DNA from: Lophium mytilinum
Taxonomy: Eukaryota
Assembly (NCBI GenBank): GCA_010093605.1
Contig: MU004184.1
Span: 506,801-570,800, forward strand
Direction of reading: 5' to 3'
DNA length: 64,000 nucleotides
This document shows positions 20,891-30,019 of the stretch, one piece after another; the first letter of the stretch is position 1, and each line of letters opens with the position of its first letter. The position numbers and the translations under genes were made by a program. Below the pieces are notes generated by a model. The model saw only the letters and a program-made list of their open reading frames with translations, was not told where the DNA came from and ran no database searches.

Positions 20891-22774
20891 CTAGCAGTTT
20901 TGCCCAGGATACGGGCACCACTTCTTGCTCTTCGTCTCCGTGGGCTCCGGCTTTTGGGAGGGCACGTGGCACTTCTGGCCGGGGTACGGACACCATGGCG
21001 CCTTCGTGCTCGTAGGCTCCATGGTCGGGGTAGGTTGTGGGGCGTCGCTTTGCTTCGTGCTCCAAGTGATTATATTTGAGGGCTTTGCGGACGAAGAAGC
21101 GGGGGTTGGGGTAGGCTTCTTCGAACTTGGTGCATGGCTTGAAACTGACATCGAACTCGGCGTATGGCTGGCAGCCGACTTCGAGCTCGGCGCATGGCTT
21201 GAAGCTAACTTGGCGCTGGAGGTTGGCTTTAAACTAGCACTATGTGCGGAATTCTGCGTTGAGACGTCAGCAATGCAGGCTTCTGAGGCGGGAGGGGAGG
21301 CGAGTGCGTACCTAGTCACAACAGGGATGCTGGGACTCGGGTTCTCGTCCACTACCAGCCCTTCCCGCACGCGTTCCGCATTCTTGTGGTTGGCAGAGGG
21401 GGTGATGATGGGTTCAGCGGAGTAGTGAAGCCCAGTGAAAGCACCAACGGCCGGTGAGGGCTCGGCCCTCCGTTCTCCGACAATGTGGGTGAGAGTCCTA
21501 GGCGGGACGTACTTGGATGAAGAAGGGGGTGGTGGTGGTGGCGGTGGCGGCGGGGTAGATTTGGGTGGAGGGGGTGGAGGGGGTGTCGACGACGTAGTAG
21601 GGCCCAAGCTGAAGGTATACGAAACCTTCGCCGGCGCGGTGGGTGGGTGCTCCACATGACCTGAGGGAGTTGACAAGTACGTTACGACAGATCCTGGCGA
21701 GGTGGCGATTGGTAGTCCGCACTCGAAGATCGTAGACGGCGGCTTGGTCGACACGATGGTCACTGGCTGCAGGTTTATCGTGGGGACAATTTGGGGTCCG
21801 TTCGTGAAGAGTTTCGAGAGCAGTGGATTAACAGCGTCTGATTTGTCTGCCCTGCGGAAGTCGCGAGGATGGTGAGCCGTAACAGACGCCGCTGGGATGT
21901 TTATCTTCGATTTCAGTTCCGCAAGGGCACTGCCTGTGACTGGGATAACGACGATGGCTGTGCTGTGAGAGCTAGAGCTACTGTGGGCCGGCGTTGGTTT
22001 TGGGCTCGTTGGCTGTTTGCTACTGGAGGCCATCGACGCGGCAGGGTTGGTATTCGAGGGGTAGAGGATGGTGAAGAAATCACTAGACTGCGTGCTGACC
22101 GGCGGCTTAACTGGGGCAGATGACGGGGGTAGCATAGCACTTCCAAGGCTTGAGCCATGGGATAGAGTCAACCTCGAGTACGCCAGTGGATTGTTGGCTG
22201 CAGGCTTGCTGGAGGCTGAATTGCTGGTTGCAGGCTTGCTAGCCGCTGGAGTGCCGGTCGCAGGCTTGCTAGCCGTGGAGTTGCTGGCCATCGGGATGCT
22301 TGGGGCTAGTGTCGCCTTCGACGCTTTACAGTAGCTTCGATTCGAAGACTGGGTGCTCGGCTTCCACGTATACTTGGGGAAGGGTAGCGACGACGGGGTG
22401 ACAATGGAAGAGGCTGAATAATGAATGCCGGAGAATCCGACACGGGATGCCGACACAACAATTGTTGGTGAGTCGACGATGCTCTTGCTGTTGGAGTTCA
22501 CAGATTGAACAGATTGGATGGTAGCCGGGGGAGGCACCTGGAGCTGGCCGTTTGATATTTGAGTCACAGGAAGGAGACCTGCTGAGAGAGCACTCTGCGA
22601 GGCGGTGACGGTTTCAAAGACAGTGTAAAACGATGTCTTCGTTGGCGTCGCGACTGGGACTGTTACTACCTGAGTAACGGTCACAACGGTTTCGCCGGCT
22701 TGTCGGGGCAAAACAGCTGCAGAATTGGCCAACTGAGTGGCCAAGAGGATGAGGGAAATAACGACTAGAAACAT
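20891..22774 (-). CDS. Secreted Ser/Thr/Pro-rich cell-wall-like protein with a PIR-like motif and two C-terminal WCPYPGQxC repeats
   Basis: 627-aa ORF; hydrophobic signal peptide MFLVVISLILLATQLANS; VTQISNGQLQ; mucin-like composition; internal repeats. Confidence 0.85.
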   Translation of the reverse strand: MFLVVISLILLATQLANSAAVLPRQAGETVVTVTQVVTVPVATPTKTSFYTVFETVTASQSALSAGLLPVTQISNGQLQVPPPATIQSVQSVNSNSKSIVDSPTIVVSASRVGFSGIHYSASSIVTPSSLPFPKYTWKPSTQSSNRSYCKASKATLAPSIPMASNSTASKPATGTPAASKPATSNSASSKPAANNPLAYSRLTLSHGSSLGSAMLPPSSAPVKPPVSTQSSDFFTILYPSNTNPAASMASSSKQPTSPKPTPAHSSSSSHSTAIVVIPVTGSALAELKSKINIPAASVTAHHPRDFRRADKSDAVNPLLSKLFTNGPQIVPTINLQPVTIVSTKPPSTIFECGLPIATSPGSVVTYLSTPSGHVEHPPTAPAKVSYTFSLGPTTSSTPPPPPPPKSTPPPPPPPPPPSSSKYVPPRTLTHIVGERRAEPSPAVGAFTGLHYSAEPIITPSANHKNAERVREGLVVDENPSPSIPVVTRYALASPPASEACIADVSTQNSAHSASLKPTSSAKLASSHAPSSKSAASHTPSSMSVSSHAPSSKKPTPTPASSSAKPSNIITWSTKQSDAPQPTPTMEPTSTKAPWCPYPGQKCHVPSQKPEPTETKSKKWCPYPGQNC

Positions 22775-23729
22775 TTTGATGCGTTGCTGAAATGATTAAC
22801 GAGTGTTGGGGAGTATATCAGATATAGGTCAACTATTACGGACTTGAGTAGGATCAGGAAGAACGACAAGAGGAATGGAGCTTTTTGATGATATACGTCT
22901 AGTCATGAACAACAATAGGAAGCAGGCCTTTGTCCTCCAGAATACAATCGGCTCATGATTCAATGACATTATGCCCCGCATCGGCCTTCACTGTGAGATG
23001 GTATTCCTTTCAGCCCCAAACGCCTACAAAGAAGACAAAGAGCTGAAGCAATGCCATGTACATCAGCCGAAGCTATATTTGCAACAGCTGGTCGAATCGG
23101 AATCCTCAAAAGCATCGGGGGTAGGGAAACGCCGCCAGCACCTTTAGAAACCGGACTCCTACCACATTTGCGGGTAGTATAATGAGTGCTATGAATGAAG
23201 AGCTCAGATGCCAAGGATGCAGCTGCCTCACGCTTCTAGTTCAGATCGCCGCCTTGAATGGCAGCCAGCGGACTGCATGAGGAGCCAATGCCGAACAAGA
23301 GAAGCACAGCTCACCTAAAAGAACTCGACCATGGCTCGCCATTGTGCTTCACAAGCACTCAATAATACTTGCAGATAGCGGGTGGCGAAGCTTCGATAGT
23401 CGTGATGAAAGCAGAGTCAACACGCTGGAATGCCGCTAAGGCGCCATCGTAGGCGTCAGTGACACTTCACTTTGGAAACCATGGTCAGATTTGGCCCTGG
23501 CGTGTATGGATCATTCTTATGGTAGAGTTGATCGAGCTGGGAGGTTTTGGGGTGGCACACTAGGCTGGTGAAGGTCGTAGATAGCGTCTCGGGTCGTGGC
23601 AGGCAAGATACAGAATCTAATGCAGGAAACACAAAGCCAAAAGGGACAGCCGTGATGAATGAAGCTGGCGACCGCCTCCCAAATCGATGACAAGCACACA
23701 TTGGTGGTGTTGAGGTGGGTCGCCGTCGG

Positions 23730-23749: not shown

Positions 23750-23914
23750 GAACTGACCGCCAAGACACGGTAGCGGCAGCGTCGAATCTTGCGAAGGAGC
23801 AAGTGCACCCAACGTCTCTCCTCTAAGCCGAGCCACCTCCTCCACCACGACCCGCCGACCCCCCAATTGACCCTCTCCGCTCCTCTCCCGGCTTTGAGCC
23901 AGCTCGACATCACA

Positions 23915-25203
23915 ATGTTGGCCAGATCGTGCCTCCGCTCGGCGCGCTCGGTCGGCCCAGCTGCGCGCAACATCGCCAGCAAAACAGCTTCGGTACGCCC
24001 CGTCCATCCCATCCGGCCGCAGTGCTGCCTCGCCAGTGCCATCTCGAGCTGAGCGGCATTCAATTGACTCGGGGGCTGACACATTGGCTATCTAGCGTTC
24101 GGCCTCATCATCCAGCTCCTCAGCCGAGGAAGCTGCCTCATCCTGGCGGACGAAGGCCCTCAGCGGAGGCTCCCTCGCTGTCGCCATCGGATCCGTAGCA
24201 TGGTACAACTATCAGTACGGCATGAGTGCTGATGCCATGACGCCGGCAGAAGAGGGGTGAGTGAATTGGACGGATACGCGGATCACCGGATCGTGGGCTG
24301 CATTTCACGGAAACCTCGAATACTGACTTTCTGGCCACCAATAGTCTCCATCCTACCGCATATCCCTGGGAACACACCAAATGGAGCAAGACCTACGACC
24401 ATGCTGCGTGAGTGCCTCAATTGAGTGTTTCCGAATTTTGAGACTGACCACCACAGTCTCCGCCGAGGCTTCATGGTCTACCGCGAAGTCTGCGCCTCCT
24501 GCCATTCCCTCGCTCGTATCCCCTACCGATCGCTCGTTGGTGTTGCCATGACCGTGGATGAGGCGAAGGCGATGGCTGAGGAGAACGAATACGATACTGA
24601 ACCCAATGACGAGGGCGAGATTGAGAAGCGACCCGGCAAGCTGTCCGACTACCTCCCCAGCCCATACAAAAACGATGAGGCTGCTCGCGCTGCCAACAAC
24701 GGTGCTCTGCCCCCAGATCTGAGTTTGATGGTCAAGGCCCGCCATGGTGGCTGCGACTACATCTTCAACCTATTGACTGGATACCCCGAGGAGCCCCCAG
24801 CGGGAGCTGTCGTCCCAGAGGGCCTAAACTTCAACCCCTACTTCCCAGGAACTGGAATCGCCATGGCCCGTGTGCTGTACGATGACCTTGTCGAGTACGA
24901 AGACGGCACACCCGCGTCGACTTCCCAAATGGCCAAGGACGTTGTAGAATTCCTGAACTGGTCCGCAGAACCCGAGGCAGACGAGAGGAAAAAGATGGGC
25001 TGGAAGGTGTTGGCCGTCACCAGTGTTCTGTTCGGTCTCAGCGTATGGGTCAAGCGGTAATAATATATCCCCAGTTTCCTTCCAGTTTCCTTTGCTCCGA
25101 AATTAAACTAACAATCCCCAGTTACAAATGGTCGACAATCAAGACCCGGAAGCTAGTCTACAACCCACCCGTCGCCGGCGCGAAGAGCCCTTTTAAGAAG
25201 TAA
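23915..25203 (+). CDS. CYT1: Cytochrome c1, mitochondrial (4 introns)
   Basis: Arg/Ser-rich presequence, [30 protein letters not shown] heme motif, [21 protein letters not shown]-terminal TM helix then KR|YKW. Confidence 0.97.
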
Positions 25204-25810
25204 ACCGGGGATCATGTATGGGAGGCTTAAGGAGATATTTGGGTCGATGGGTTTCATATGCAAGGCACTGGGAGCGATGCCGTGTCTACTACTTGTACAG
25301 CACTAGAAAAACACTACTGGCTCCACCTTTTTCCTTTGATTGTGCGATAGACACCCGGGGTGCTGCACGGAGAGGTGCGGTTGATTTGTGTACTACCAAA
25401 TGCATGTTGTTTGATCTATCCCGGTGCAAACATTTGTTGTCACTAACTAAAACGGGTGTGGGAGAGTATAAGGTCTAGGTCATCCTATCGGAGTTCCAAA
25501 CTCGGTCTATAAGAAGACATTCACTTGGCTAACTAGTGATAAACAGTGAAACAGAAAAATAGGATTCAGCATCCAAGCAACAACCGATAACACAATAAGA
25601 CATCGCAATCTACCGAGCCGCGCCAGTCCACCTAGGGCTCAAAACTCCCCATCTCAAACCAGCACGACCAAACAGTGTAACAGTAACAATAACAGAAAGA
25701 AACCAAATTGAAGACTCGACCGAAAGGTCTTCATTCCTCCAGCAATCCCCCTTCGCCTACGCTGCGCTTTCTAGTCCCCTCGTGGATTCATTTGCCTAAC
25801 CTGCTGGAAT

Positions 25811-26224
25811 TCATCGATACCTATTGTCCCGGTACTTTGTGCACTTCTCACTGGGGCAAAAAAAGTTGTCAACCCAGATGCGGCCCGGAACGCCTTCTCT
25901 ACTCGTATCGGGGAGGATGCACTCGCAGGGCTTCCCCTCTTTTCGCAAGGGGCACTTCTCTATGTCATCCTCGTTGTATTTTGAGCCTTCCTTCACTACA
26001 CGGATACAGTATGCGCATTTGTACCGACGTATGGAACAGATTTTCTCTTTCTTAAGACTCTTAACCTCGTCCTCCTTTCGGTCTTCGCTTGGTGATTGAT
26101 TTGCTTCTCCTTCTGGAGCTGGAGATTTATCCCGGGTTGGCTTGATCGCCTTCCCTTTTTCGATAGGAGCTGGAGTCTCGAGGGGAGCAGCATCCCTGAC
26201 TGGGGCATCTGCAGCTGTCGGCAT
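25811..26224 (-). CDS. Small 8-cysteine protein A (137 aa), putative Zn-binding, no signal peptide
   Basis: C-x6-C-x2-C-x17-C-x8-C-x-C-x20-C-x4-C; 5'UTR intron 26380-26286 (GTAATC..GCTGAC..CAG); TATA at about 26541-26548. Confidence 0.65.
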   Translation of the reverse strand: MPTAADAPVRDAAPLETPAPIEKGKAIKPTRDKSPAPEGEANQSPSEDRKEDEVKSLKKEKICSIRRYKCAYCIRVVKEGSKYNEDDIEKCPLRKEGKPCECILPDTSREGVPGRIWVDNFFCPSEKCTKYRDNRYR

Positions 26225-27151
26225 ATTGAGTGGCGGATGAGGCAACGAGGTTGTATCTTTGGTCGGGTCGTGAGTAGTCGAGAGTCTGCGTTCACATAGT
26301 CAGCGCCCAGGGTCAAAGTTAGTAAAACATTTATAAGATGCTGCCTACACTTTAATGGTGCCAGCAAGCTCCTAGATTACTTGTGTTCTCGATAGTATTT
26401 CCTTAGCTAAGTATATGAAGGAAGCGAGGAATAGATCCTGATGAAAGTGTTGAAGATGGACGTTTATGAAAGTACTCAATCAGTAATTGGTAATTCGTAG
26501 GTGGATGCGGATGGTGGAGGAATATCCCCATCGGCGCGGGTTATATACAGGCTTGAGCACGTCCTCTTCTTGGCTTTCGATGACTATACTTCTACCCACA
26601 TCTGTCACTGCTATGAAACATGGCTATTGCGGCGCTGAGTCTTGATGAGTCTCCAGAATATCAAATGACTGACTGCGGTTCTTATCAGGGATCAATTCAA
26701 AAGAAGACATTGACTTAGCTAACTAGTTATAAACAGGCAAGGAGAGAAGCCAAAGCAAGAATAAAAGGAAATCTAATATTCATGCAACAACTACAATATC
26801 CAAGAAACCCTTCAATCAAGCACCGCCTCCAAAGTTCGCTCCAGGCAAAAGAGATAGCTTCCAAACCAAAGAAATCTAATATTCACGCAATGGCCAGAAT
26901 TCCCAAGAAACACTACAGTCCAGTAAGCCCTCCCAGCCCATGTCCTAGTCGAGCAATCCACCCCTCCAAGCACAATCTGATACCAAAGGAAAATACACCC
27001 AAGCAACAATACAAATGCTCAAGATACACTACAGTCTAAGAAATCCTCCGAGTCCATCTCCACATCGAACACTTCACTTCTCCCAGTGCAAGCTCTGTCG
27101 AAACCAAGCATTCGGCTCCGCCTGTGCCTAGAGGTTTGAGTAGAACGTGCT

Positions 27152-27394
27152 CTACTTCTTGCAGTGATCGCACTCCGAAGCGTCACGCTTGACGAAGTTG
27201 TCCGTATCTGGATACAAAGGTGTTGTCCCTAAGGCCTCATCATCGCAGTCGCAATACGTGTATTTACTCTGTCTTCGGTTTACGCACGAAGATCGGGAAC
27301 CTTCGTCGCCTTTCGATAGTTTGCCGCATGTGTTGCATTTCTTCCAGAAATACCAGCATTGGACTTCCAGGCGCAGGCTGCTGAGTTCGGGCAT
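27152..27394 (-). CDS. Small 8-cysteine protein B (80 aa), paralogue of A
   Basis: C-x6-C-x2-C-x13-C-x10-C-x-C-x24-C-x2-C; 5'UTR intron 27484-27440 (GTGAGC..GCTGAC..TAG); TATA at about 27673-27681. Confidence 0.65.
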   Translation of the reverse strand: MPELSSLRLEVQCWYFWKKCNTCGKLSKGDEGSRSSCVNRRQSKYTYCDCDDEALGTTPLYPDTDNFVKRDASECDHCKK

Positions 27395-27737
27395 GATGCA
27401 ATGCTCTTAGAAGCTTGGAATAATGGGCGTTCTTGGTATCTACGGTCAGCCTCTAGCATCTAGCTGGTATTGGAGAGCGCTCACTCGTAAGAAGCAGGGT
27501 GAGTTCGAGATAGATTTGTTTTGTTCGTTGATCGCCTGCTGGCTTATGGGATATTAAAGCCGAAGAAGTATGAATGGATGTATCGACGGTTGATAGTTGT
27601 GAATGCTTGCTCGTTCAATTTGGTAGGTTGTAGGTGGATGTGGATGACGGAGGAATACTGCCATTGACGCAGTATATATACATGCTTGAGCTCGGTCTCT
27701 GCTTGGCTTTTCGATGACTATACTGCTCCCAAACTAC

Positions 27738-28150
27738 ATGACTGGTATGAAACTTGGCTATTGCGGCGGTTATTCTCAACGACATGAAACCACTGACTGC
27801 GATCTAGTCATATATGTAGCAGGAGAGATATTTCGCAACCGGCCTCGAGCCTCTATTTCGAATTATTTCTCGACTCGACCGCATGACTGGCATGAAACTT
27901 GGCTATTGCCGCGATGATTCTGCAAGAATTGAAACAGTTGACTGTAACTCTAGTCATAGATATAGAACGGAAGATATTTCGCAACTGATTCGCAAGATCC
28001 TTTCTTCAATTGTACTTCAAATCGACCGCATGACCTGTATGAAACGTGGCTATTGCGGCGATGACTCTCGAGGATATGAAACGACTGACTGCGACTCTAG
28101 TCATGAACGCAGAACGAGAGATGTGTCGCAGCATGACGACTCAGAATAGG
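27738..28150. repeat. Three degenerate tandem copies of a ~145-bp unit
   Basis: atgac(t/c)(g/t)g(t/c)atgaaac(t/g)tggctattgc(g/c)gcg...tgactg(c/t)...tctagtcat...gagatatttcgcaac at 27738, 27883 and 28030; a single related copy lies at about 26605-26690. Confidence 0.9.
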
Positions 28151-28525
28151 TTGCGTTGCGATTAATAGAGTTTGATTGCTCTTGTCGCTGGGCAGGTGAA
28201 TTAAGGAAGAGGCTTTCACGCGATTTGTTTGAACTCTATGAGGTCTTGTCGTTGAGGACTTCACTCTTTCCGTAGGCCAGGGCCGTTACCTCGTTGTTTG
28301 AGTGCTGGTTATTAGCACCTCGATTACAATCTTCACTCTTTCAGTCCCCCTAGTCCAGTCAGAACATCTAGCCGCTCTACGTGCGACTCCCGAGAACGCA
28401 ATTCACAGCCCATCCAAAGCACAAAAATAACTTCTTAAGCCCCTCGGAAGCCGCAGCTCCAGCTCCAGCTCCAGCTCCTCCTCTCTACCCAGTATTCCCA
28501 CCGATCCCCTCAACTTCCCCAAAAA

Positions 28526-28810
28526 TCACGAACCCCCAAAACACTTCCAACACCCCCCTACCGCGTCCTTCACCGAATCCGCCCCTCCAGCTTCGCGTCC
28601 CGCCAACACATAGTTAAGCGTCCGCATGATCCCATCCAGCAGCGTCAAGATCTGCGCCTGAAACAACAGGAGCAGGAAGAACATCGCTCCCGCAACAACA
28701 GCGATGATGCGTAAAGCCGTGAAATTCGGGGTTGGATTCCGTTTCTGGGCGGAGAGGGATTCGGGGTCGATGCGGTGGTAGGTGGGTGGAGGGGAGAGGG
28801 AGTCAGTCAT
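28526..28810 (-). CDS. Possible small single-pass membrane protein (94 aa)
   Basis: ATG-initiated ORF with an N-terminal PPTY motif and a hydrophobic stretch IIAVVAGAMFFLLLLF; no recognisable family. Confidence 0.35.
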   Translation of the reverse strand: MTDSLSPPPTYHRIDPESLSAQKRNPTPNFTALRIIAVVAGAMFFLLLLFQAQILTLLDGIMRTLNYVLAGREAGGADSVKDAVGGCWKCFGGS

Positions 28811-30019
28811 GCTGAAGTAGATTGGAAGATGTGGGTGCGTGATTTATTATTATGTATAGTACGAGGCTGGGGAGGTGGAGCTTTAACTTTCTTTCCCTGT
28901 GGTTTTGGACGTCTGTGGCGAGGTGGTTGAGGTCTAGAGGGCTTGTGTAGGTAGCGGGGGAGATTGGGGTGGCTGCTTGTTGCCTGATTTGGGGTTCAAT
29001 GGGTTGCGGGAGGCTTTGTTGTGGTGGAGGGCTTTGACTAGACTTTTTAGCGATGGACAAAGTTCGAGGAGTGATGTTCAGAACTCGCGAGATCGCGACA
29101 TGGATATGGCTCATTAGAGAAGACATGATGATCCTACTAATTAATAAGGAGGGTGATACTGGGACTCACGTGTAGCCATACTCTAGAATACTTTCGAGGC
29201 TATCGACAGTAGGCTTAAACGCAAGCATGTAGAACTACAGATATTTCCTCCATGTGGGATAGGAGGGAACAAAGTACGACTCTTCTAATTCTCTTAACTT
29301 AAATAGTACCCCGTGCAAAATTCAAACATCAAAGTTGAGTACGTACGCTGTCCTCAACTTTCCTATGCAGAATCTTCCTTGTCATAATATTACGGCGCCT
29401 CGAACCCACAACTCCCGAGCGGGAAGGTAACACATCCCTTATCCTCTCAACTCTCCTATTTCCTGAGCTTTCTCCCGCCGCCGGTATACCACCTGCAACT
29501 ACTCCGCCCAACTACGGTACCAGATGTTGGAAGACTCCGGCGCCGAAGCCCTGATTGGTCGATTGCAGTCCTTGCAGGGATCACCTACCTGCGATATTGA
29601 CGCGGGACGGCAGAGCTGCAGGAAGGATGTCGTGAAACCGAATCGAGGGCCCAGAACAGCTTGCTTTGGTGGTAGGATGCTCTACGTCCAGGCCATCGGT
29701 GTCAGCAGAATGGCTTAGCTGCAGGCGGAGTAGGGGATATCTGATATTTTATATCTGCAACCCGGGTGCAGGTAGCTATATCAAGTGGCTCTGCCCACAT
29801 GGGTGGGAAGGTAACGCACCTGGATTGTCTCACCGACCCCATCCGCGTTGATCAATCGATGACGTCGGGTTGAAGTCGCTGTTTCGTTTTCCTCATCTGC
29901 TTGGAGAGCCGTTGATATCTTCTTCGTTGAGGTTTGACGCGTGTTTCTGATCCATTACTCGTCGTCCGCAACTCCACTCTGGTCATTATAAGCAGACCAG
30001 GCCGCTCGATCTCGAAGCC

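Follow-up and report, generated by a model that had tools for sequence, protein, structure and literature searches.

A tandem pair of orphan genes for putative eight-cysteine microproteins beside conserved non-coding DNA in Lophium mytilinum

Introduction

Orphan small Cys-rich genes are numerous in fungal genomes, and the tandem pair presented here (genes A and B) is compared below with small proteins of described cysteine pattern. Small two-zinc Cys-knuckle modules include zinc ribbons, treble clefs and cross-braced fingers; like them, A and B are small and hydrophilic and carry candidate ligand sets made up solely of Cys in CxxC, CxC and Cx2-4C knuckles, whereas neither has a Pfam zinc-finger match (E<=10) or a significant PDB chain. 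The CSL/DPH3-type zinc finger is a domain of some 60 aa with a single C-x-C ... C-x2-C site, and only C5-C8 of B (C-x-C-x24-C-x2-C) bears a likeness to this spacing; no Pfam match at E<=10 places A or B in that type.

The fungal Zn2Cys6 binuclear cluster (PF00172) follows the pattern C-x2-C-x6-C-x5-12-C-x2-C-x6-8-C. A and B are likewise fungal, hold at least six Cys and display C-x6-C and C-x2-C spacings, but their gaps run in the order 6,2,13-17,8-10,1,20-24,2-4 and they have no PF00172 match. With the small secreted cysteine-rich fungal proteins (effector-like SSCPs, CFEM proteins and hydrophobins) they share a tandem, lineage-restricted occurrence and an eight-Cys framework that is kept while the loops have diverged. 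Unlike those proteins they have neither a signal peptide nor a hydrophobic segment; CFEM and hydrophobin Pfam matches are absent, as are the CC pairs of hydrophobins. To our knowledge, the full spacing C-x6-C-x2-C...C-x8/10-C-x-C...C-x2/4-C fits no family that can be named.

Results and discussion

The locus and its coding sequences

The sequence analysed was the stretch 506,801-570,800 of the forward strand of contig MU004184.1 in the Lophium mytilinum assembly GCA_010093605.1. This 64,000-nt stretch is termed the window, and all positions refer to it. Two tandem units of about 1.15 kb were delineated, with one minus-strand ORF in each:

25811-26224, minus strand: coding sequence of gene A, 137 aa; called as a protein in a public gene set (P0001)
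27152-27394, minus strand: coding sequence of gene B, 80 aa; essentially a bare 8-Cys module

Protein A is composed of an acidic (pI 4.8), Cys-free N-terminal tail (residues 1-57) and a basic (pI 9.1) 8-Cys domain (residues 58-137). Among the six frames, the codon-usage score was highest in the ORF frame for both genes (A 0.155, B 0.079). Known coding chunks scored 0.20 +/- 0.11 on the same scale and off-frame chunks -0.15 +/- 0.13, with 0.8% (A) and 3.3% (B) of the off-frame chunks reaching the score of the ORF.

The eight-cysteine skeleton

The cysteines of each protein fall within one module:

25841-26038, minus strand: 8-Cys module of A, C-x6-C-x2-C-x17-C-x8-C-x-C-x20-C-x4-C
27161-27358, minus strand: 8-Cys module of B, C-x6-C-x2-C-x13-C-x10-C-x-C-x24-C-x2-C

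A shared 8-Cys skeleton and a DNF tripeptide had been noticed by an earlier, sequence-only reading of this locus, and both were confirmed. Each protein contains exactly eight Cys (8/137 in A and 8/80 in B, a content of 6-10%), and all eight stand in near-identical spacing, at gaps 6,2,17,8,1,20,4 in A vs 6,2,13,10,1,24,2 in B. When eight Cys were placed at random in 80 positions, the observed per-gap tolerances were reproduced by 1 of 1,000,000 placements, and a total gap deviation no larger than that observed by 450 of 1,000,000. The skeleton, searched as a regular expression in all six frames of the 64-kb window, matched ORFs A and B and no further copy. A Cys-anchored alignment gives identity at 26 of 61 positions, or at 18 of 53 once the Cys are set aside, and EGS, PDT and DNF are common to both proteins. 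BLASTP of A against B left the relationship undetected (E = 2.5), and MAFFT put C5-C8 out of place. The register of all eight cysteines beyond chance, together with the best codon score falling in the ORF frame of both genes, argues that A and B are real, old paralogues kept by selection on the protein, as judged from sequence.

The absence of a signal peptide, also proposed earlier, was upheld by the low N-terminal hydrophobicity (maximum Kyte-Doolittle 9-residue mean over the first 30 residues, 0.46 in A and 0.36 in B) and by the in-frame stop that lies 5' of the ATG in both ORFs, with no earlier in-frame ATG; over A, moreover, the RNA contig is unspliced. GRAVY is about -1.0 in both proteins, and an intracellular location is predicted. 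AlphaFold2 run without an alignment gave models too poor to use (pLDDT 45.3 for B and 38.9 for the A domain).

With a His content of 0 or 1, the ligand sets of both proteins would be all-Cys. It can be presumed that each protein is a small, very hydrophilic, intracellular one built on a single 8-Cys module, which most likely holds two metal ions; the knuckle arrangement suggests two Zn(Cys)4 sites, probably formed by the CxxC, CxC and Cx2-4C knuckles with the two single Cys. The same all-Cys sets and the missing zinc-finger family match would also suit an Fe-S cluster, copper, or disulfides in a non-classically exported peptide, with no structural zinc sites, and spacings of the C-x6-C-x2-C / C-x-C kind are compatible with Fe-S sites. 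However, no Fe-S, metallothionein or secreted-peptide family match was obtained either, there is no signal peptide, and the Cys content of metallothioneins is well above the 6-10% found here; this second assignment of the cysteines is accordingly regarded as improbable.

Searches for relatives

The pair had been put forward as a possibly undescribed family, and the database searches agree with that proposal. Neither protein matched a Pfam-A family at E<=10. With phmmer, A compared with 1.84 billion representative proteins returned 1 match, A itself. The word-indexed protein search confirmed 1 of 5 candidates for A, which was again A itself; for B it yielded none at near lengths, and 13 candidates among longer proteins with 0 at E<=0.01. 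Nothing significant was retrieved from the PDB by sequence, with 0 matches for the A domain and two insignificant ones for B (E 1.2 over 16 residues; E 2.2; C1orf123). A and B are a genuine orphan family with no detectable homologues in the protein data searched.

The literature matches listed for the string 'CX6CX2C' concern, in their available extracts, Zn2Cys6 regulators, radical SAM enzymes and peptide libraries, with no small-protein family among them. In the ESM Atlas, three unnamed clusters of small proteins from Ascomycota came up both for B and for residues 56-137 of A, at scores (0.86-0.89 and 0.81-0.83) that lie under the 0.9 bar and come from a comparison made without the cluster sequences, so that they constitute no more than a lead; in the structural rows TM stays below 0.5.

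Transcripts and leaders

Transcription was assessed from one data set, treated as RNA-derived since its contigs are without the cytochrome c1 introns, all four of which are removed; the contigs are unstranded, carry a single depth figure each and come with no stated growth condition. One contig runs collinear with the genome between 25121 and 26558; it spans the whole of gene A, unspliced, and is merged with the very abundant convergent cytochrome c1 transcript. Gene B is covered by low-depth contigs, and the stretches lacking cover (26559-26975) were given no weight. Four features of the leaders are of interest:

26286-26350, minus strand: intron-like stretch in the A leader, with GT donor, TACTAAC branch and CAG acceptor recognised by eye; retained in the RNA contig
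27440-27484, minus strand: intron-like 45-nt stretch in the B leader, by eye GTGAGC...CTGAC...TAG; holds the upstream ATG at 27459; no spliced contig seen
26403-26531, minus strand: upstream ORF in the A leader, 42 aa; its first 15 codons align with the 36-aa upstream ORF of B
27554-27664: upstream ORF in the B leader, 36 aa

Two claims of the sequence-only reading did not survive this comparison. A 5'UTR intron had been assigned to each unit; the sequence signals exist, but unit A is unspliced up to 26558 and the RNA contigs of this data set show no splice joint anywhere in 25121-28022. A 'TATA block' had been taken for the promoter; the motif (26541-26548) is situated inside the RNA contig, 10 nt from its end, and thus belongs to the leader of these transcripts and not to the region upstream of their start.

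Upstream ATGs were located at 26531, 26330 and 26297 in the leader of A and at 27683, 27664 and 27459 in that of B, and unless the leaders are spliced they would interfere with translation of the main ORFs. Over the 15 aligned codons, the DNA of the two upstream ORFs is about 80% identical by hand count, the same as the surrounding block, and therefore gives no sign of coding constraint.

These upstream ATGs, the lower GC at the pair (0.46, vs 0.50-0.60 in all but one other 2-kb bin), the repeat-rich character of the stretch and the absence of B from the protein collections searched could all be accommodated if the ORFs were untranslated remnants in repeat-rich, AT-richer intergenic DNA whose transcripts are non-coding or read-through, the more so as the RNA contigs give neither the strand nor the level of A itself. 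Against such an origin, neutral drift to saturation of the DNA (alignment z = 0 for the coding sequences, see below) would not leave two open frames with 8/8 Cys, nor does it agree with the best codon score lying in the ORF frame of both A and B. We consider it very unlikely that the ORFs are remnants of this kind.

Conserved flanks and diverged coding DNA

The two units were found to align clearly outside their coding sequences, in the following blocks:

26441-26700, minus strand: upstream conserved block of A; as far as about 26558 it is within the RNA contig and hence leader (proximal part), and 26575-26700 (distal part) forms one copy of a 146-bp repeat
27574-27853, minus strand: upstream conserved block of B; proximal part and first 146-bp repeat copy (27709-27853)
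25511-25558, no strand assigned: downstream conserved block of A, 48 bp; in an interval that the convergent cytochrome c1/gene A RNA contig bridges
26701-26748, no strand assigned: downstream conserved block of B; abuts the upstream block of A and so marks the tandem-duplication joint; the bin 26692-26975 is without RNA cover

Upstream, 26487-26577 and 27620-27710 are 79% identical, as are 26575-26642 and 27709-27776, and gapped blastn aligned 26441-26642 with 27574-27776 at 73.7% over 205 columns; downstream, 25511-25558 and 26701-26748 share 83% identity. The reported alignment of the tandem units of about 1.15 kb in both flanks is thereby substantiated (74-79% and 83%), and so is the unusual observation that their non-coding DNA is more alike than their coding DNA. 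Set against 200 shuffles per segment, the A vs B alignment z-scores were 26.7 (upstream proximal), 17.9 (upstream distal) and 10.9 (downstream block), compared with 3.2 for the 3'UTR, 1.4 for the 5' leader and 0.0 for the CDS.

The sequence-only reading had attributed this pattern to diversifying selection, in which conflict, allorecognition or a mating-stage role drives the divergence of the coding sequences while the promoters are held constant. The retention of the Cys framework when nearly everything else has changed (18 of 53 non-Cys positions identical), the conserved flanks, and the failure to find homologues, as fast-evolving genes would predict, are all in keeping with that interpretation. 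However, the leader and 3'UTR are about as unalignable as the CDS, and accelerated coding evolution is therefore not required; we deem diversifying selection an unlikely cause. The saturation of the UTRs speaks for an old duplication with flanks that would have been conserved or homogenised, and it is the conserved flanks, rather than the diverged CDS, that need explaining.

A duplicate mutated by RIP was also considered as the cause of the divergence and rejected. RIP is expected to give a high TpA/ApT and a low (CpA+TpG)/(ApC+GpT) relative to the genome, and the indices of the units are ordinary (0.81-0.82 and 1.21-1.32, respectively, against 0.74 +/- 0.21 and 1.20 +/- 0.15 in 1.2-kb bins of the window).

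No Rfam family (E<=1) or tRNA was detected at the locus, and no RNA fold in the conserved blocks was more stable than in shuffles (z -1.44 to +0.33); an action of the blocks at the DNA level is thus favoured.

The 146-bp repeat

The distal upstream block is one member of a repeat 145-147 bp long that occurs once at A and three times in tandem at B (27709-28147). This array was overlooked by the sequence-only reading and is not reported by Tandem Repeats Finder; it rests on self-alignment and on a four-copy alignment, whose mean column identity is 73%. The elements concerned are:

27854-28000 and 28001-28147, no strand assigned: two extra 146-bp repeat copies, 62-85% identical to the others over the cores; they flank no gene
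26612-26634, plus strand: nearly invariant 23-bp repeat core, copy at A, TATGAAAC.TGGCTATTGC.GCG
27746-27768, 27891-27913 and 28038-28060: the other 23-bp core copies, at B

Allowing up to 3 mismatches, the core has 4 matches in the window vs 0 in 100 shuffles. A metagenome scan with the 21-nt core returned three loci whose likeness is limited to 22-28 nt and which have no ORF with the Cys skeleton; they were taken as chance.

Coding of the repeats on the plus strand (small ORFs, 67 and 88 aa long, in which M-K-x-G-Y-C recurs) was examined and discarded. The 145-147-nt spacing breaks the frame, and the repeat is not considered coding because the variable core positions would be non-synonymous and the frames of the plus-strand ORFs are not the best-scoring ones.

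The likeness of the flanks could be a younger feature than the genes, produced as a 146-bp repeat expanded beside two old paralogues and its copies underwent gene conversion or unequal crossing-over. All repeat copies, even the two that flank no gene, are of similar identity (62-85% ungapped); the upstream block of about 200 bp is conserved evenly, with no islands of short motifs; and the distal part of A (26644-26687) is closer to the third copy at B (80%) than to the second (61%), no match being listed for the first. On the other hand, the proximal block (26487-26577/27620-27710) and the 48-bp downstream block lie outside the array and are equally conserved, and the 23-bp core is kept far better than the remainder of the repeat, which argues for constraint. 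Homogenisation and constraint are compatible with each other, and we accord homogenisation a real, if lesser, chance of accounting for the flanks.

Our preference, held with slightly more confidence than doubt, is for an old orphan pair under purifying selection on an 8-Cys metal-binding module, served by a shared, co-regulating upstream module. The tandem duplication would be old enough for unconstrained DNA (third positions of the CDS, leaders and 3'UTRs) to have diverged past alignment, while purifying selection on the proteins would have kept the frames, the eight Cys, their spacing and the loop residues EGS, PDT and DNF. It is plausible that the module of about 200 bp common to A and B is regulatory, with the 146-bp unit and its 23-bp core acting as a composite transcription-factor site; the core may well be the regulatory element proper. 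The module would co-regulate A and B, and the repeat copy number (1 vs 3) possibly sets the strength.

If real, the pair would offer a clear-cut natural instance of a protein family pared down to its metal-ligand skeleton, in which only the eight Cys and about one-third of the other aligned residues are shared and yet kept by selection, adjoined by a regulatory module better conserved than the genes it serves. It would also provide a testable case for the upkeep and co-regulation of orphan microproteins, and a compact enhancer, its 23-bp core present once at A and three times at B, from which the cognate factor could be identified. The matter is a modest one, no phenotype being yet linked to the A/B pair.

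Candidate regulators

According to passages of PMC10789715, Ste12 binds TGAAACA in yeast as well as in filamentous fungi. Seven TGAAAC motifs lie between 26614 and 28077, two per repeat unit at B and all within copies of one repeat, and two of the seven are the exact Ste12-type TGAAACA. Upstream repeats of TGAAAC(A) bring Ste12/PRE-controlled promoters to mind, but five of the seven are not the exact 7-mer and all are copies of one repeat; they are treated as candidate sites.

The motif of MAT1-1-1 (alpha-box) is given in the excerpt of PMC8022922 as (T/C)(T/C)ATTGA(G/T/C), with core ATTGA. Compared with the motif in that form, the 23-bp core reads CTATTGCG / CTATTGCC in 4 of 4 repeat copies, where C replaces the final A of ATTGA (motif position 7). 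A mating-stage function, as one form of the diversifying-selection proposal, gains from the seven TGAAAC motifs and their two exact TGAAACA; it loses by this departure from the MAT1-1-1 core and by the non-independence of motifs that are copies of a single repeat.

A more ambitious synthesis would see here a new family of microproteins that act inside the cell and bind metal (two zinc ions or Fe-S), switched on by a dedicated, copy-number-variable 146-bp enhancer with paired Ste12-type elements, as a signalling- or mating-stage-specific module whose loops evolve under conflict while its ligands and enhancer stay fixed; we offer it as highly speculative and most probably wrong in this complete form. 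Over the whole window, TGAAAC occurs 32 times, vs about 31 calculated for random sequence.

Genomic setting and duplication of the gene pair

Genes A and B are genuine orphan genes lying in tandem; they encode small, presumably intracellular eight-cysteine proteins and share an upstream module built from a repeat. They sit in about 3 kb bounded by cytochrome c1 and by the next transcript on the minus strand, in DNA that reads as a fungal-type nuclear genome, with a DAHP synthase, a xylose-isomerase-like TIM-barrel gene and a cyclin-domain gene among the other neighbours in the window. The GC content of this stretch is 0.46, that of the other 2-kb bins being 0.50–0.60 with the exception of one bin. 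The pair is a tandem duplication, its two units meeting at 26700/26701.

Genes and conserved blocks of the locus
about 23877–25200, plus strand: cytochrome c1 gene (PF02167), with four short GT..AG introns absent from the contigs of the public run
25811–26224, minus strand: ORF of gene A, 137 aa
27152–27394, minus strand: ORF of gene B, 80 aa
26487–26577 and 27620–27710: proximal upstream block, 79% identical
26575–26642 and 27709–27776: distal upstream block, 79% identical
25511–25558 and 26701–26748: downstream block, 83% identical

Global alignment of the units segment by segment, with z-scores against 200 shuffles, gave 26.7 for the proximal upstream block, 17.9 for the distal upstream block and 10.9 for the downstream block, against 3.2 for the 3'UTR, 1.4 for the 5' leader and 0.0 for the coding region, confirming the claim of the sequence-only reading that non-coding DNA is here better conserved than coding DNA. 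Gapped blastn of 26441–26642 with 27574–27776 gave 73.7% over 205 columns.

The eight-cysteine proteins

BLASTP detected no relationship between A and B (E = 2.5). Each protein has exactly eight cysteines, with gaps of 6, 2, 17, 8, 1, 20, 4 in A and 6, 2, 13, 10, 1, 24, 2 in B; when eight cysteines were placed randomly in 80 positions, 1 of 1,000,000 placements fell inside the observed per-gap tolerances and 450 of 1,000,000 had a total deviation no larger than that observed. A regular expression for the skeleton, run over six frames of the 64 kb, matched the A and B ORFs only. In the Cys-anchored alignment 26 of 61 aligned positions are identical (18 of 53 non-Cys), among them EGS, PDT and DNF, so that the proposed skeleton and its accompanying DNF are borne out.

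Both proteins are very hydrophilic (GRAVY about −1) and lack a hydrophobic segment. Over the first 30 residues the 9-residue Kyte-Doolittle mean reaches at most 0.46 in A and 0.36 in B, and an in-frame stop precedes the ATG in both; neither is therefore a classical secreted peptide, in agreement with the earlier claim that a signal peptide is absent. A carries a Cys-free, acidic N-terminal tail of 57 aa (pI 4.8) before a basic Cys domain (pI 9.1), while B is the Cys domain alone (pI 6.5).

A codon-usage log-odds score was trained on 5,604 codons from the window's long ORFs; for both genes it was highest, among the six frames, in the frame of the ORF (A 0.155, B 0.079). Known coding 80-codon chunks scored 0.20 ± 0.11 and off-frame chunks −0.15 ± 0.13, the score of A being reached by 0.8% and that of B by 3.3% of the latter. 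The evolutionary argument is stronger: the coding regions are saturated, yet the frames are open and the eight cysteines in register, a state that neutral decay would not produce. A is 100% identical to P0001, a protein of a public gene set, and B was not found in the protein collections searched.

Six of the eight invariant cysteines form CxxC, CxC and Cx2-4C knuckles, and the other two stand singly. In a presumably reducing compartment, two tetrahedral metal sites per protein would be the simplest reading of this arrangement, and both proteins are probably metal-binding; zinc is the plausible default, with an Fe-S cluster as a possible alternative.

Pfam gave zero families at E ≤ 10 for A and B, the PDB sequence search gave no significant match for the A domain or B, and phmmer with A against 1.84 billion representatives returned A itself as sole match. 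Among the papers retrieved for the Cys spacing, titles and abstract openings revealed no such family. The proposal of an undescribed family is supported. AlphaFold2 models were unusable (pLDDT 45.3 and 38.9). In the ESM Atlas both queries drew the same three clusters, each unnamed and made up of small Ascomycota proteins, at sub-threshold scores of 0.81–0.89; these are a lead to possible relatives. Fungal genomes commonly carry small Cys-rich orphan genes.

RNA evidence

The A/B stretch is present in one public run, whose contigs lack the cytochrome c1 introns through splicing and hence derive from RNA. A 2,377-nt contig runs from cytochrome c1 through the entire gene A to 26558, gapless after 25121; contigs carry neither strand nor local depth, and the one over A also takes in a convergent transcript of very high abundance. 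B and its repeats (about 26976–28022) are covered by low-depth contigs (about 5–9), and the bin 26692–26975 has zero cover in this single run.

Features of the leaders
26286–26350: intron-like stretch in the A leader, with a TACTAAC branch, located by eye
27440–27484: intron-like stretch in the B leader, located by eye
26531, 26330, 26297: upstream ATGs, A leader
27683, 27664, 27459: upstream ATGs, B leader

The observation made from the sequence alone is largely right, two features excepted. The supposed 5'UTR introns are unsupported, no contig of the one run showing the intron-like stretches removed (minor spliced forms are possible). The TATA-like motif at 26541–26548, proposed as promoter, lies 10 nt inside the A contig and is thus leader for these transcripts, which start at or upstream of 26558.

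The contig at 23877–26558 joins spliced cytochrome c1 (plus strand) to whole gene A (minus strand), so the convergent transcripts overlap or abut somewhere in 25200–25810, an interval that takes in the conserved downstream block. Upstream ORFs at 26403–26531 (minus, 42 aa) and 27554–27664 (minus, 36 aa) start from ATGs that align with each other inside the conserved leader block, and they agree in 10 of their first 15 residues by hand count; their DNA identity is no higher than that of the surrounding block, with no signal of coding constraint.

The upstream repeat module

The distal upstream block is one unit of a 145–147-bp repeat, overlooked by the earlier reading.

Copies of the repeat
26575–26700: single copy at A
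27709–27853, 27854–28000, 28001–28147: tandem copies at B

Tandem Repeats Finder did not report the three-copy array at B. The unit is near nucleosome length. Its nearly invariant 23-bp core, TATGAAAC.TGGCTATTGC.GCG, has 4 matches in the window at ≤3 mismatches versus 0 in 100 shuffles. A second TGAAAC...TGACTG element follows that of the core by 37 nt in the three copies at B, each of which thus holds two TGAAAC elements at this distance.

A coding role was rejected: the small plus-strand ORFs, which share a recurring M-K-x-G-Y-C, lie outside the frame that scores best, the 145–147-nt spacing disrupts the frame, and the variable core positions would alter the residue. No Rfam family or tRNA was found, and folding of the conserved blocks did not surpass that of shuffled sequence (z −1.44, −0.16, −0.25, +0.33). 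Being non-coding, without such matches or a stable fold, the blocks may be read as elements acting on the DNA level.

TGAAACA is a Ste12-bound element in yeast and several filamentous fungi (PMC10789715); the exact 7-mer occurs in 2 of the 7 TGAAAC copies upstream of A and B. The CTATTG adjoining TGAAAC resembles the MAT1-1-1 site, whose defined core is ATTGA (PMC8022922), whereas all four repeat copies read ATTGC. A link to mating signalling would be a lead and not a result. Scanning metagenome contigs with a 21-nt core gave three loci matching over 22–28 nt only, probably all by chance; the longest outside match, at 706–733 of the 1,088-nt metagenome contig L001, aligns with the repeat core over 28 nt at 93%, with dissimilar flanks.

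Origin of the conservation pattern

The sequence-only reading took better conservation of non-coding than of coding DNA for a sign of diversifying selection, which the pattern itself does not demonstrate: by the segment z-scores, leaders and 3'UTRs have diverged as much as the coding regions. The loops may have evolved under positive selection. RIP was rejected as cause of the divergence, the indices of the units (0.81–0.82 and 1.21–1.32) being inside the window range.

The economical reading would be an old duplication in which all unconstrained DNA is saturated and selection on the protein maintains the Cys skeleton. Conservation of the flanks would come from a shared regulatory module under selection, from homogenisation at a later time through conversion or unequal exchange between copies of the repeat, or from the two together. 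The core is far better preserved than the remaining repeat, which argues for some constraint. The copies, including the two flanking no gene, are alike in identity (62–85% ungapped; a column mean of 73% when the four copies are aligned), which argues for some homogenisation or common age.

Further observations around the pair

The 3' region of unit B (26765–27094) holds internal direct repeats of about 103–116 nt (66 nt at 74%, 81 nt at 72%). The right-hand neighbour (28016–29820) is seemingly transcribed from the minus strand, with an intron of 138 nt at 29682–29819 (CT..AC on the plus strand) and a small ORF (28526–28843, minus) that includes a hydrophobic stretch; its contig stops at 28016, within the third repeat copy. 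Positions 28454–28478 hold a (CAGCTC)4 microsatellite. On the other side, a 634-aa open frame at 20891–22795 (minus), for which no Pfam match was found, appears to encode a secreted or wall protein, with very abundant Ser/Pro/Thr, a hydrophobic N-terminus and a Pro run.
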